Assembly (NCBI GenBank): GCA_046160625.1
Contig: JBJXGZ010000044.1
Coordinates: forward strand, 736-64,735
DNA length: 64,000 bases
Source: Saprospiraceae bacterium
Lineage (GTDB): Bacteria > Bacteroidota > Bacteroidia > Chitinophagales > Saprospiraceae
Reading direction: 5' to 3'
Positions 1,349-44,060 of the stretch are shown here, in pieces. Position 1 is the first letter of the stretch; the number at the start of each line of letters is the position of its first letter. The notes under the pieces were generated by a model. The model made no database searches. It was given only the letters and a program-made list of their open reading frames with translations, and had not been told where the DNA came from. The position numbers were made by a program, and so were the translations under genes.

Positions 1349-1438
1349 AAGTAACAAGTTTCAAGTTAAAAGTAATAAGTCCCAAGCAGCATCATGGCCA
1401 CTTGGAACTTATTACTTTTAACTTGAAACTTGTTACTT
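1349..1438. repeat. Inverted repeat/hairpin with 38-bp arms (1 mismatch) and a 14-nt loop; arms are AAGTNNN heptad arrays
   Basis: 1349-1386 aagtaacaagtttcaagttaaaagtaataagtcccaag pairs with 1401-1438. It fills the whole gap between convergent batA (stop 1339) and the TPR gene (stop 1440). Confidence 0.9.
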
Positions 1439-1439
1439 A

Positions 1440-2282
1440 TCAGCCCTTCGCCAACTTCTCGCATTCCGCCAGCAAAAACTCCGCCTTAGGCCGGAAACGG
1501 ATATTCGGGTCGTTCTCCGAAAAAGAGCGTTGAAGGTATAGCTTCAGTTCCACGAGTGCTGCTGCATACCGTTTGGCGTGGTAGAGACAATCGGCTTTGC
1601 GCAAACGTGCCAACCAATAAATGGGCTGTACTGCCAGTGAGCGCTCCATAGTATTCTGAAAATCCTGAATGGCACTATCCCACTCGTTTTTAAGCATGTT
1701 TATTTTGCCACGGCCATAAAAGGGCTCTGGATTGTGACCGTAAATGGCGATGCTTTTGCTGAAGTCGTAGAGGGCGTCGTTGTAGTTCTTGAGTTTGTAA
1801 TTTACATATCCCCGGCGCTCGTAAGCCAGTGCGTTGTGAGCATATTTTTCGATGGAATTGGTCAGTGCTTCAGAAGCTTGCTCCATGCCGCCTTGTTGCA
1901 CAAGTTCGCGCCCCCTCAAGTATTCAGATACAGAAACCTTGTCGGTCTTTGGCTCGATCAGATGTTGGTCAAGCACTTTACCGTTAGCCACCCACCAAGC
2001 GCCTACATTTCCTGCAAGTGCGAATTGCGCTACTTCGTAAAGCAGTGCGGTAGTGCTGCGCCAGCGCTTTTGAGTGCTCATCAGCGTTTGTTGCGGTACT
2101 GTGAGTGTATAGCCTTCTTCGCTGAAAACCTGTTCTGCCGTGAACAATACATCGGCCTTGAAATAGTTCTCCACACGGGTATTCCAGTGCTTCAATACCA
2201 TATCATAGGTTCTTTGCGAACCAAATTCGAGACGGCCCCTGAAGACCACCTTTAGCTGTAATGCTTGCTGTTGTATTGTCAT
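1440..2282 (-). CDS. TPR-repeat protein
   Basis: 280-aa ORF with an ATG start. The C-terminal half has TPR-like spacing (ALAYERRGYVNYKLKNYNDALYDFSKSIAI...). The antisense ORFs at 1734-2255 and 1852-2040 are shorter. Confidence 0.65.
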   Translation of the reverse strand: MTIQQQALQLKVVFRGRLEFGSQRTYDMVLKHWNTRVENYFKADVLFTAEQVFSEEGYTLTVPQQTLMSTQKRWRSTTALLYEVAQFALAGNVGAWWVANGKVLDQHLIEPKTDKVSVSEYLRGRELVQQGGMEQASEALTNSIEKYAHNALAYERRGYVNYKLKNYNDALYDFSKSIAIYGHNPEPFYGRGKINMLKNEWDSAIQDFQNTMERSLAVQPIYWLARLRKADCLYHAKRYAAALVELKLYLQRSFSENDPNIRFRPKAEFLLAECEKLAKG

Positions 2283-3047
2283 CCTGCTGCTAGTTTAAGT
2301 TTGAACGGTTTTCAATTGGCAGGGTACAATGATGTTCACAAAAACACTATGAACGTGTGCTTACGTTCCAAAAGAGCGCAAACAAATTCCATTTTCGACA
2401 GGACATACGCAATTGCCTTTTCTGTCGAAAAATAGGGACGATGCTAAGGACAACAACATTCTTAGGCTGTTGTTGACTACTAAAAACAAGAAATCGTTGA
2501 ATGATGCCCTCTAAATGTGGTAGCCAGGATGAATGCGATTAAAATTCCAGACTACAAAAGGGTGCTTTCCCACACAGAAAAACAAAGGTTGCAATTTCTT
2601 CTTGGCTGTGCAAGCAAATAGGTTTATTTTTTTTCTACAAAACATTTTGTTTTATAGTGTTTTGGGCAATTTTATTCTTATTGGGCCATAGTTCGGTGTG
2701 GGTAACAAAATATAATAGGCGTTATGTTGTATTAAAAATCGAACGAGTCATCCCTAAATACGTCGCCGCATCACCCAACGCTTCCTCAATCCATAGCAAT
2801 TGATTGTACTTCGTCATCAGGTCTGAGCGAGAAGCCGAGCCAGTTTTGATCTGGCCTTGCCTTAGATGATACCATCCCATTGGCTACATTGGCCTTGCGC
2901 TTCGACCGCATCTGACCTATAGATGGATGACGTGTCAGCGCACGTCACCCATTCCATTGACAACAATCATTCTGCCACTTTCTTATCTGTGCAATAAATT
3001 CGATACTTTTGTTACGGCTCTCTATAAAAAACAAATCTCTATTCAAT

Positions 3048-3725
3048 ATGAAAAACAAAGTTTTCTTATTCCTACTGCCGACGCTGGCAGCCGTATGGCT
3101 AACAATGCCAAGTTGCCAGTTTACTTCCAAAGAACCCCAATATAAACCTGCTGCCGGGCGAGTCCTCGAATACGGCACGCTCACACCAATCGAGGGCGCT
3201 TCGGTGTCCCTTTATGATTGTGAAGGCGAGTTGCTGGGCAATTTTTCCTGTCATATCCTCGACTCAACCCTCAGCGATAGCGAGGGCCGATATGCCTTTT
3301 CCCAAACAGGCTTCCTGACCAATGCCCGTAAAGATGGCTACTTCACGGACCATACTACCGAAGCGCAAGTGCTGTTCGGCAGCGAAGACAAGACTGACAT
3401 TATTCTGCCGCCTCATGCTTGGCTGAGGGTCACGATTCGGAATGAGAGCGGGGTGTATGGCTTTGGATCGTCCCAACTATTGGAGGAGAGATTAATTCAG
3501 GCTCAGGGTCAAGAACACACAGTGGTCAAACTTGTAAAGGGGAATGCCCTATACAATCTGATCTTCTTTATTTTATTAGATGATAATACTTCAACTACTG
3601 ACATTTCAAATATTAAGGTATTAGACGAATCCGGCAATGAACTTCCTATTACTCAAGGAGTGTCGCTAAGTGTTTTTGCAAGCCCTATTGGACACGATAC
3701 TACCAATCTTTTCATCACCTACTAA
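3048..3725 (+). CDS. Lipoprotein with CarboxypepD_reg-like domain
   Basis: Internal ATG gives MKNKVFLFLLPTLAAVWLTMPSC, a lipobox-like signal. The segment GRVLEYGTLTPIEGASVSLYD...SEGRYAF is typical of carboxypeptidase-regulatory-like folds. Confidence 0.6.
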   Translation: MKNKVFLFLLPTLAAVWLTMPSCQFTSKEPQYKPAAGRVLEYGTLTPIEGASVSLYDCEGELLGNFSCHILDSTLSDSEGRYAFSQTGFLTNARKDGYFTDHTTEAQVLFGSEDKTDIILPPHAWLRVTIRNESGVYGFGSSQLLEERLIQAQGQEHTVVKLVKGNALYNLIFFILLDDNTSTTDISNIKVLDESGNELPITQGVSLSVFASPIGHDTTNLFITY

Positions 3726-42673: not shown

Positions 42674-42712
42674 TACCTCCAAAAAGGGGTCGCACATTCA
42701 CGCATCAGATAC

Positions 42713-43960
42713 ATGCAAGTACTATTAAAAAATGCACATCTCTTTGACGGCACTTCTAAAAGCCGGGTACAGGATATTTTGCTGAAAGATGGCCATATTG
42801 ATGCCATTGGCGACCAGATTCCTTTGCCACAAGGGGCGGTCCTGTGGGAATCTTCGAATCTCTGCGTATCTCCGGGCTGGCTTGATGTAGGCGTATATGC
42901 TGCTGATCCCGGCTACGAACACAGGGAGGATTTGACCACGGCCGCTGCCGCTGCCGCTGCCGGAGGATTTACCTCCATGGCCTGCTTTCCAAATACCGAC
43001 CCGGCCTTGCACACCAAGTCTGAGATATTATATGTAAAAAACAAGGCGAATGATTTGCCCGTGCACTGTTATCCAATCGGGGCGGTTTCGCAAAGTTGCG
43101 AGGGAAAGGACTTGGCCGAGCTTTTTGATATGCACACAGCGGGCGCCGTGGCCTTCAGCGATGGCAAACGCTCGGTTCAAGATGCAGGGCTGTTGCTGCG
43201 CGCTTTGCAATACTCGAAGGCCTTCGAAGGCTTGATAATCAATGTTCCTCATCATAAAACGATTGCTGCCGGAGGGCAGGTGCACGAAGGAGTGATGAGT
43301 ACTTCGCTTGGATTGAAAGGGCTTCCTGCCCTGGCGGAAGAACTCATGGTGCAACGCGACCTCAGTCTGTTGGAATATTCCGAAGGCAGATTGCATATCC
43401 ATTTGATTTCAACGGCAAAAAGCGTGGCGCTTGTAAGAGCAGCCAAACAAGCCGGGTTGCGTGTAAGTTGCTCCGTTGCGGTGGCGAATCTCTGCTTCAG
43501 CGAAGAAAAACTGGCAGAATTTGATTCCAATTGGAAAATAGTGCCCCCGCTTCGCAACAAGGCCGATGCCGATGCTTTGCTAGAGGGCCTTGCTGATGGG
43601 ACGATTGATTTTATTTGCTCGAATCACACTCCCTGGCACGAGGAAGCCAAAAACCTGGAATTCACCTATGCCGAATTTGGTATGATTGGGCTGGAAACAT
43701 CCTTTTCCCTTTGCCGCACTTTTTTGGATAAAAAACTGACAGTCAATGATTTGGTTGAAAAAATGAGCCTTGCACCACGCCGGGTTTTAGGATTGCCCAT
43801 TCCAAAAATTGCCAAAGGAGAACGCGCGGAATTGACCGTTTTTGATCCTGACATTGAATGGGTGCTGGAAGCAAAAAACATCCGCTCCAAATCCAGCAAT
43901 ACACCCTTTATTGGCCAACGGTTCAAGGGGAAGGTCTTGGGAATAATATGTGGCAAGTAG
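42713..43960 (+). CDS. Dihydroorotase-like amidohydrolase with degenerate metal/catalytic motifs
   Basis: 415 aa, collinear with type I DHOase (PGWLD..., AFSDG, LHIHLISTAKS, ...SNHTPWH...). The HxH motif reads GVY and the TDHAPH Asp is Asn. Confidence 0.75.
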   Translation: MQVLLKNAHLFDGTSKSRVQDILLKDGHIDAIGDQIPLPQGAVLWESSNLCVSPGWLDVGVYAADPGYEHREDLTTAAAAAAAGGFTSMACFPNTDPALHTKSEILYVKNKANDLPVHCYPIGAVSQSCEGKDLAELFDMHTAGAVAFSDGKRSVQDAGLLLRALQYSKAFEGLIINVPHHKTIAAGGQVHEGVMSTSLGLKGLPALAEELMVQRDLSLLEYSEGRLHIHLISTAKSVALVRAAKQAGLRVSCSVAVANLCFSEEKLAEFDSNWKIVPPLRNKADADALLEGLADGTIDFICSNHTPWHEEAKNLEFTYAEFGMIGLETSFSLCRTFLDKKLTVNDLVEKMSLAPRRVLGLPIPKIAKGERAELTVFDPDIEWVLEAKNIRSKSSNTPFIGQRFKGKVLGIICGK

Positions 43961-43975
43961 CAAGGTTGGTTTTTT

Positions 43976-44060
43976 GGTGGTTTGTGGATTTGGTGATTTG
44001 AAGTGCACAAATCCACAAATCCACAAATCCACAAATCACCAAATCCACAAATCCACAACA
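43976..44060. repeat. Octamer tandem array (CCACAAAT, about 7 units) with a complementary upstream arm; slippable hairpin
   Basis: 44006-44060 reads cacaaatc x4, accaaatc, cacaaatc, cacaaca. The stretch 43981-44000, tttgtggatttggtgatttg, is complementary to 44032-44051. The array ends 3 nt before the eamA-like ATG. Confidence 0.85.

Follow-up and report, generated by a model that had tools for sequence, protein, structure and literature searches.

Intergenic hairpins with tandem-repeat arms in a Saprospiraceae genome and its relatives: candidate foldback repeat families at gene ends

Known intergenic repeats and the Saprospiraceae hairpins

The palindromic repeats of bacterial intergenic regions, such as the repetitive extragenic palindromic (REP), ERIC and Correia sequences, are seen as consensus copies moved by transposases, and arrays of heptamers are regarded as a separate curiosity. 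Here we analyze a 64-kb stretch of a Saprospiraceae bacterium (GenBank assembly GCA_046160625.1, contig JBJXGZ010000044.1, positions 736 to 64,735 of the forward strand; hereafter the window), in which the two are fused in seven intergenic hairpins, s1 to s7, whose arms are themselves short-period tandem arrays. In this clade, such hairpins reach about 70 bp (-120 kcal/mol) and stand in essential operons such as mreBCD. On balance, and with somewhat better than even confidence, we interpret them as a clade-restricted population of foldback intergenic repeat families that is remodeled by slippage and template switching and probably acts like REP sequences in mRNA.

In behavior, the closest described elements are REP sequences and REPINs, which are likewise extragenic, lie at gene 3' ends and in operons, form hairpins, and show several families per genome and polymorphism among relatives (PMC3116915, PMC3733652). 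The REPIN arm, however, is a short 20-40 nt palindrome that bears a GTAG or CGTC tag and is tied to the REP-associated tyrosine transposase (RAYT), whereas the arms described here are direct arrays of 7-9 nt units. The layout of two inverted units forming one long extragenic hairpin is common to both, and the short imperfect palindrome with its tag is found in none of the arms. REPs stabilize the upstream mRNA, and those near a stop codon reportedly affect translation of the upstream gene, as Liang, Rudd and Deutscher are said to have found in 2015. Correia and ERIC elements are also hairpins of roughly 100-150 bp in transcribed intergenic regions, where they are candidate RNase III targets and mRNA modulators. 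Unlike the present elements, they follow one consensus per family, have defined terminal inverted repeats, generate a TA duplication in the case of Correia, and lack tandem arms.

In architecture, the closest elements are the eukaryotic Foldback transposons (Drosophila FB, Galileo and Tetris; PMC3573991, PMC4079207), which consist of inverted repeats of tandem subrepeats with unequal, variable arms and little or no center. Inverted arms of tandem subrepeats, variable and unequal in length, are what we find here, yet Foldback transposons are eukaryotic, of kilobase scale, flanked by target-site duplications and in some cases equipped with P or MULE transposases, so the likeness is one of design and not of homology. 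We know of no prokaryotic counterpart of these transposons. The hairpins also resemble MITEs (miniature inverted-repeat transposable elements) in being small, non-coding and bounded by terminal inverted repeats, and they depart from them in having no target-site duplication.

Head-to-tail arrays of 5-11 nt units, above chance and mostly intergenic, define the long simple sequence repeats and the short tandemly repeated repetitive (STRR) sequences, and such arrays are present here as well. The long simple sequence repeats of Mrazek 2007, as summarized in PMC4679880, share with our elements heptamer-dominated intergenic arrays, several dispersed unit families, a patchy lineage-specific distribution and a presumed driving role of slippage. 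They are described as direct arrays, from another phylum and defined without inverted pairing, whereas 48/89 intergenic arrays are paired here and form hairpins next to stop codons. Cyanobacterial STRR heptamers were reportedly described by Mazel in 1990, Vioque in 1997 and Elhai in 2008. In heterocystous cyanobacteria, heptamer repeats extend helix P12 of RNase P RNA, with the units forming both arms of the helix. Template-switch mutation provides a further parallel, as it yields perfect stems in single events, multi-base compensated changes and loop inversions (PMC8794818; PMC5941160); it has been reported in rRNA and microRNA stems that measure from a few to tens of base pairs, not as a source of dispersed families or of arms made of arrays. 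A GC-rich stem of about 5-15 bp followed by a U-tract, the mark of an intrinsic terminator, is found in none of the seven hairpins. Our literature search, whose incomplete coverage makes it no proof of novelty, turned up no account of hairpins with tandem-repeat arms, whether in Bacteroidota or elsewhere among bacteria.

Families of repeat-armed hairpins at different gene ends

The analysis covered this one window together with relatives, that is, labeled loci (L001 and so on) from related genomes. Hairpins were recovered by direct reading, an inverted-repeat search and a purpose-written hairpin finder; arm arrays were called with Tandem Repeats Finder, arm autocorrelation was tested against dinucleotide shuffles (5000 per arm), and RNA folds of the sense strand were given z-scores against 200 dinucleotide shuffles.

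All seven long inverted repeats located by a first-pass annotation of the window were recovered, with stems of 28-52 bp and 87-100% complementarity, and the two that it had called perfect proved to be so over 32 bp (s3, 32/32) and 46 bp (s5, 46/46). Tandem Repeats Finder agreed with its copy numbers and placed arrays of period 7-9 in both arms at every site. The periodicity likewise exceeds that of dinucleotide shuffles, as judged by autocorrelation at six sites: shuffles matched it in 0-4/5000 cases for s1, s2, s3 and s6, and in about 70-100/5000 for s5 and the left arm of s7, where it is weaker and still significant. The ungapped test failed for s4, in which a 1-nt indel makes units of 9 and 8 nt alternate; the ACATA core of these units occurs three times in register (P=0.002). 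Sense-strand folds range from -37.5 to -85 kcal/mol (z -5.8 to -15.2), and at none of the seven sites did any of the 200 shuffles equal them. Elements measure 75-230 bp, consist wholly of inverted repeat and loop, and contain no open reading frame (ORF); in some, the arrays surround a unique palindromic core.

The view that these hairpins are a class separate from ordinary terminators is upheld. Their stems are AT-rich and far from the terminator format at 28-52 bp, no T-run follows the hairpin on the sense strand, and s3 and s4 begin with T6 on the 5' side and close with A6 on the 3' side, which is the terminator order reversed. Canonical terminators with A-tract, stem and T-tract are present in the same window (Table 1). 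Five further long hairpins of the window show no periodicity and comprise two canonical terminators, two zero-loop palindromes and one GC-rich doublet. Rfam gave no match at the gathering threshold in the 64 kb.

Comparison of the elements shows that they form several families recurring at non-orthologous gene ends, within and across related genomes. We label s5 and s7 as family A, the AAGTNNN heptamers of s1 as family B and the GATGTAT / GAACTAT heptamers of s2 as family C. The two members of family A share GGATTTGGTKATTTGARGTGC at 19/21 nt, inner non-repeat part included, a match seen in 0/100 shuffles; the site-7 element of L099 aligns with window s5 across arrays and core (GAGGYGCC..AAGCTT), and a family-A relative lies downstream of the trypsin-PDZ gene in L008. 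Family B occupies three loci within 42 kb of GCA_963852445.1 (site 1, site 7 and a third locus), its variant units standing in identical order in each, and paralogs of s1 are found at 9893-9987 and 16888-16959 of L100. For L096, a Saprospiraceae metagenome-assembled genome (MAG; GCA_016787415.1), three elements (H1, H5 and H6) can be aligned through their arrays, a unique core of 40 nt and a portion of the loop, with unrelated flanks. Similarly, in L001 the site-3 array matches the site-5 hairpin at 18/18, and L010 has TAGTGTTT arrays at two loci. Because the same arrays and cores stand at unrelated loci, sequence has been copied between loci.

These findings modify the first-pass annotation, which had proposed one shared architecture with a different unit at every locus, as opposed to copies of a REP or MITE consensus, and had regarded recurrence of the arms elsewhere as evidence to the contrary. 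The shared architecture stands. The uniqueness of the units does not, given the match between s5 and s7, nor does the denial of repeat copies, as the elements fall in dispersed families; recurrence of the arms is seen in part (s5 with s7, the s1 family three times in 42 kb, and three of the seven L096 elements).

Orthologous sites combine persistence with turnover. A heptamer-armed hairpin occupies the mreB|mreC gap in 11 of the 14 distinct genomes compared (window, L082, L084-L087, L091 and L093-L096), the carriers other than the window ranging from 93% down to 58% MreC identity, and is absent from L081, L083 and L097. Its units vary among GATGTAT, GAACTAT, GAACGAT and GAATGAT, with GTTATCN instead in L096. 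At site 1, a core GTTCCAAG-loop-CTTGGAAC is common to six genomes. In L081 and L083 it forms a short terminator of A-tract, stem and T-tract, accompanied by a heptamer array on a single side; in the window, L082, L091 and L093 its arms are lengthened by AAGTNNN units. This series of sequences suggests that the site-1 hairpin arose through in-place growth of an ordinary bidirectional terminator.

Sites 3, 5, 6 and 7 turn over fast among relatives. The s3 element is also present in L002 and L005, with one compensated change and, in L005, an inverted loop; at the same site, L006/L009 and L007 have hairpins of different units, L001 and L003 have a direct array alone, and five others have none. Orthologs of s5 are found in L002 and L005, whereas s6 is restricted to the window and L001 (where it is longer, 37/37) and is absent from L006, L007, L011, L012 and L014. 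At site 7, L099 has a full family-A element with its core, L098 a partial family-A element and L100 a family-B element, which shows that one intergenic site can host different families in different genomes. The ortholog of s4 in L001 is 95% identical over 82 nt.

A CtaA-based scan assigns the window to uncultured Saprospiraceae/Lewinellaceae; its best match, with 96% amino-acid identity, comes from an activated-sludge MAG. The density of periodic-arm hairpins per 100 kb is 10.9 for the window, 4.9 for L001-L014 (CtaA identity of 76% or more), 1.2 for L015-L044 (58-73%) and 0.5 for L045-L080 (50-59%), and it rises to about 33 in L096, with seven in 21 kb. The same pipeline applied to 150 kb of E. 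coli K-12 returned three long hairpins and no periodic one. Across approximately 1.5 Mb of clade sequence, arrays of 6-11 nt units numbered 89 in intergenic and 44 in genic positions; an inverted partner lay within 260 nt of 48/89 intergenic arrays, leaving 41 solitary, versus 6/44 genic ones, and the arrays at site 3 of L001 and L003 are among those without a partner. Several L096 foldbacks have (T/C)GTAC(A/G) in the inner stem and TGTAGCC in the loop in common.

An assembly artifact was rejected, since the same hairpins were found again in independent assemblies of different projects. The elements do affect assembly: the contig of the closest EamA relative (L098, 96%) stops within the s7 hairpin, at its positions 1-56, and short-read assemblies break at elements. 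In practical terms, this class of repeat breaks short-read assemblies and puts spurious peptides in protein databases for abundant activated-sludge and freshwater bacteria. When viral contigs were scanned for three family motifs, most hits proved to be coincidental matches in coding sequence and one was a foldback resembling family A; there is no sign in them of phage carriage of these elements. That single foldback, in an IMG/VR viral contig (L105, 2650-2780), reads GGGTGGATTTGGTTATTTGAGG ... CACAAATAACCAAATCCAC.

Position relative to genes is equally regular. The flanking genes are housekeeping genes in conserved synteny, and the gene labels given in the first-pass annotation, MreB|MreC, PorU (peptidase C25)|PorV and amidohydrolase|EamA, were confirmed. 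In a census of the window and 80 related loci, 21 periodic-arm hairpins lie between co-directional genes, one in a convergent gap and one in a divergent gap. By comparison, the 87 non-periodic long hairpins include 45 in co-directional and 34 in convergent gaps, as expected of bidirectional terminators, so that the convergent share is 34/87 for non-periodic versus 1/23 for periodic hairpins. Relative to the upstream stop codon, the base of the hairpin is placed at -9 to +30 nt, typically at about 5 nt, and several hairpins, such as s5, include the stop codon; the exceptions are s4 and its L001 ortholog, which stand hundreds of nucleotides from any upstream stop. The earlier statement that three gaps are too tight for a promoter is borne out at mreB|mreC and amidohydrolase|EamA: s2 and s7 lie there inside operons, 5-22 nt ahead of the next ATG. 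At porU|porV it fails: the hairpin is separated from the porV start by a block of 45-49 nt that all relatives conserve.

Origin, remodeling and possible roles of the hairpins

Tandem-repeat arms had been expected to allow register slippage and copy-number change, and the comparison agrees: orthologs differ in unit number and type, and arms are unequal within elements. For instance, s2 has 6.3 versus 7.7 units and s7 has 3.5 versus 6.6, while arrays of L096 that are 100% perfect have 4.4 versus 5.4, 3.7 versus 7.6 and 6.6 versus 4.7. As the arms are unequal, units must be gained and lost in each arm separately. Compensatory substitutions, which the first-pass annotation had suggested looking for in relatives, are also present, with compensated double changes in 13/39 pairs of a five-sequence alignment of family B and one in s3. 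Loops have been inverted between relatives at two sites, where the flipped alignment scores 19 against 6.5 direct (s3, window and L005) and 20.5 against 8.5 direct (s5, L002 and L005); loop inversion is a signature that has been ascribed to template-switch mutation in hairpins (PMC8794818). Arm identity is 73-100%, compared with 32-71% at four-fold sites in the same genome pairs, and the slower divergence of the arms relative to silent sites therefore implies that some constraint acts on the elements.

In the account we favor, replication slippage would add and remove units, and template switching or recombination inside the palindrome would copy changes from arm to arm and flip the loops. At least s1 would have arisen in this way from an ordinary bidirectional terminator. 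Copies would reach other gene ends, for which microhomology-primed template switching and an undiscovered structure-specific transposase are candidates, and would be tolerated or kept only where they immediately follow a stop codon. At site 7, the native gene end (AAGTAACAAG; AAGT[AG][AG]CAAG in three genomes) resembles the family-B unit, a resemblance between sequences that hints at microhomology seeding. At site 5, filled and empty genomes read GGA|element|TGACA and GGA-TAAC-TGACA, a limited comparison in that the empty sites are themselves variable.

The absence of a U-tract and the location of two elements inside operons mean that the elements must be transcribed. Transcripts would then carry hairpins of 28-52 bp at the 3' end of the upstream cistron, and these, by analogy with REP, ERIC or Correia, would act as barriers to 3' exonucleases, as RNase III substrates or as attenuators of read-through. 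The hairpin would thereby determine how strongly the flanking genes are expressed relative to each other, for instance keeping MreB well above MreC. The mreB/mreC junction of E. coli has a stem-loop that limits read-through, and the steady occupancy of the mreB|mreC gap across these genomes fits a role in holding MreB above MreC. If the proposed dynamics are true, these genomes offer a natural-population view of how slippage and template switching build, lengthen and repair long RNA and DNA stems, of how a terminator becomes a repeat family, and of how elements become fixed at particular gene junctions. More tentatively, and as a bolder possibility that we would not yet bet on, the elements could be a prokaryotic counterpart of foldback elements without a dedicated transposase, in which heptamer slippage and template switching turn ordinary terminators into runaway palindromes, which microhomology of a few bases then seeds at other gene ends and which are retained since the RNA hairpin tunes operons. 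If true, this would represent a new route for the birth of repeat families and cis-regulatory RNA structures in bacteria.

Several observations weigh against the interpretation of the hairpins as dispersed foldback families acting in mRNA. Among the seven, only s5 and s7 are related, the family copies seen amount to 2-3 per sample of 21-64 kb, and an 11-mer search of the 64-kb window for further arm copies gave chance hits only. Neither the 30 window proteins scanned nor the gene tables for the fetched related loci include a transposase, Y1 type included, no target-site duplication flanks s1-s7 or the three L096 copies, and no terminal motif is common to all families. The slow divergence of the arms is unexpected for purely neutral junk, and function or self-preservation must be added to the account. 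In a strand test for selection on the RNA, based on G-U versus A-C mismatches, the sense strand has 17 G-U mismatches overall and the antisense strand 11, which is not significant (6 versus 1 within the window); of the two folds, that of the sense strand is the more stable in 16/25 cases, weakly in the same direction.

Part of this evidence bears on the reading, unlikely in our judgment, that each hairpin is a purpose-built cis-regulatory RNA evolved in place as an intra-operon processing site, stabilizer or attenuator, with the repeats giving a tunable stem length. It would explain why the hairpins stand directly past stops in co-directional pairs, why mreB|mreC is occupied in 11/14 genomes to 58% MreC identity, and why the arms are better conserved than four-fold sites and show compensated changes; the slight sense-strand excess of G-U pairs (6 versus 1, and 17 versus 11) points the same way, although that asymmetry is not significant. 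It accounts poorly for the same sequences and unique cores at unrelated loci, for close relatives that lack the element or have another family at the same site, for loops whose orientation flips relative to the genes, and for elements in convergent or divergent gaps.

The elements could instead be ordinary non-autonomous transposons of MITE or REPIN type, moved by a transposase encoded elsewhere, with the units as reiterated binding sites or a by-product; we regard this, too, as doubtful. Multi-copy families with sharp homology boundaries, polymorphic presence among relatives and contigs that break at elements are all consistent with it, and a GTAG-tagged REP-like doublet at 47606-47665 suggests a possible RAYT-type system in the genome (PMC3733652). 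Against it, there are no target-site duplications, no terminal nucleotides conserved across families and no transposase in the window proteins scanned or the fetched loci; the arms are direct arrays and not self-palindromic REP units, the units diverge too much between families for a single sequence-specific enzyme, and site 1 shows gradual growth in place from a terminator.

That same terminator, the s1 core in bidirectional form in L081 and L083, together with the placement at gene 3' ends and a small hairpin with T5 just past s3, could suggest that the hairpins are unusually long intrinsic (Rho-independent) terminators. We consider this quite improbable, because no U-tract follows on the transcribed strand at any of the seven, with the runs of s3 and s4 reversed, and because s2 and s7 lie inside operons 5-22 nt before the next start codon. 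Canonical terminators moreover coexist in the window, periodic hairpins do not favor convergent gaps (1/23 versus 34/87 of the non-periodic), and according to a recent survey the predicted 3'-end stem-loops of Bacteroidota differ little from canonical terminators (PMC13613805). The least credible reading, that the elements are inverted iteron-like or nucleoid-organizing arrays bound by protein at the DNA level, draws on regularly spaced short motifs in both orientations and on conservation of arm sequence and not of pairing alone, yet the units are family-specific, so that no single binding protein fits, the periods range from 7 to 10 nt, and location follows stop codons and not promoters or origins. 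Integron attC sites were rejected, as there are no GTTRRRY ends or boxes and the neighbors are housekeeping genes in conserved synteny, and iteron and CRISPR-like assignments were dropped in view of heterogeneous units, housekeeping neighbors and the lack of spacers.

Individual sites and neighboring features

The coordinates and composition of the individual elements are compiled in Table 1.

Table 1. Repeat-armed hairpins and canonical terminators of the window, and the foldbacks of L096 (window positions except for L096; arms as left / right, followed by paired positions)
Feature	Position (strand)	Arms and loop	Repeat units	Sense-strand RNA fold	Flanks
s1	1343-1444	1349-1386 / 1401-1438, 37/38; loop 14 nt	family B, AAGTNNN; periodicity matched in 0-1/5000 shuffles	-53.5 kcal/mol, z -13	whole gap between convergent VWA (365-1339, +) and TPR (1440-2282, -) genes
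s2	12009-12136 (+)	12009-12057 / 12074-12122, 47/49	family C; right array with two extra units, reaching 12136	-78.7 kcal/mol, z -14.9	mreB stop 12004-12006; mreC ATG 12142
s3	23092-23197 (-)	23092-23123 / 23166-23197, 32/32; loop 42 nt, containing small GC hairpin ~23138-23154	NNACAGGAT x3	-61.9 kcal/mol, z -13.3	downstream of CtaA stop (23204-23206); next gene alpha/beta hydrolase
s4	24307-24392 (-)	24307-24340 / 24359-24392, 32/34	ACATAGGN x3, period 8-9	-41.5 kcal/mol, z -11.4	32 nt upstream of likely CtaA start (ATG 24274); ~720 nt ORF-free stretch before s4
s5	26238-26390 (-)	26238-26283 / 26345-26390, 46/46 (52 nt at 96%); loop 61 nt	family A, (G/T)ATTTGNN octamers, and inner unique stem GAGGTGCCAAAG	-85 kcal/mol, z -15.2	aldehyde dehydrogenase stop (26384-26386) inside 5' arm; next gene trypsin-PDZ protease
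s6	31020-31094 (-)	31020-31049 / 31065-31094, 26/30	CGCAACGN x3	-38.5 kcal/mol, z -7.2	4 nt past porU stop (31099-31101); 49 nt ahead of porV start (30970)
s7	43966-44062 (+)	43973-44000 / 44016-44043, 25/28; several alternative registers	family A, CCACAAAT / ATTTGTGG octamers; 3.5 units left, 6.6 right	-37.5 kcal/mol, z -5.8	amidohydrolase stop 43958-43960; EamA start 44064
Canonical terminator	8035-8098				
Canonical terminator	15558-15604				
Canonical terminator	52866-52904				
Seven L096 foldbacks	1495-1725, 2560-2712, 5335-5520, 7080-7245, 9814-10008, 13395-13560, 16810-16975	stems to ~70 bp	heptamer arms; arrays 100% perfect	to ~-120 kcal/mol	

Some intergenic regions that hold a hairpin contain further conserved sequence. 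After s5 and upstream of the trypsin-PDZ (HtrA-like) gene, a sigma-54-type -24/-12 box, TGGCACAATTATCGC, lies at 26209-26224 on the minus strand and is kept in all relatives, with or without the s5 hairpin. Between s3 and the alpha/beta hydrolase gene, a conserved block, GCCGCTTTTTTCTACTTTTGCCCA, includes a Bacteroidetes-type -7 box, TACTTTTG (23033-23040, minus strand). The stretch of about 720 nt between the protease gene and s4 (24393-25114) matches no Rfam family and contains no ORF longer than 60 aa; it could harbor an unannotated RNA or small gene, and L001 has a comparably long gap without coding sequence.

The GTAG-tagged REP-like doublet at 47606-47665 is built as AGTAG-CCCGGAAC-GCT-GTTCCGGG, followed after 12 nt by an inverted copy, and folds into a perfect 24-bp stem. 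A third, single copy of the unit stands 300 nt upstream, at 47302-47318, and its palindrome CCGGAACNNNGTTCCGG is also found in L082 and L083. The doublet, which contrasts with the untagged direct arrays of s1-s7, looks like a genuine REP/REPIN family, hinting at a RAYT somewhere in the genome.

Between TPR and dnaN, the segment 3009-7990 contains ORFs of 225 and 1417 aa without a Pfam match. Judging from their being missing from the syntenic stretch in L091 and L093, the segment looks like a lineage-specific insertion.

Non-periodic palindromes also recur. Perfect examples of 45 bp in L006 (7362-7489) and 29 bp in L068 (4619-4694) both contain the motif TTTGTCATYCTGTCGGRAACCGTCCAC and probably represent another repeat family. 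In the window, the gap that separates the aldehyde dehydrogenase gene from the OmpA/PD40 gene holds a perfect zero-loop palindrome of 42 nt, GCACGACCTATATTGTTCCAC|GTGGAACAATATAGGTCGTGC, at 27982-28023; the core of this palindrome, TGTTCCACGTGGAACA, is found at the syntenic place in L001, L006, L009, L011, L012 and L014 with varying outer arms, and the palindrome may be an operator site. Just past the pseudouridine synthase gene, at 39656-39697, lies a near-perfect zero-loop palindrome, GGGGAGACCCCGGAGGTTTTC|GAAAACTTCCGGGGTCTCCCC.

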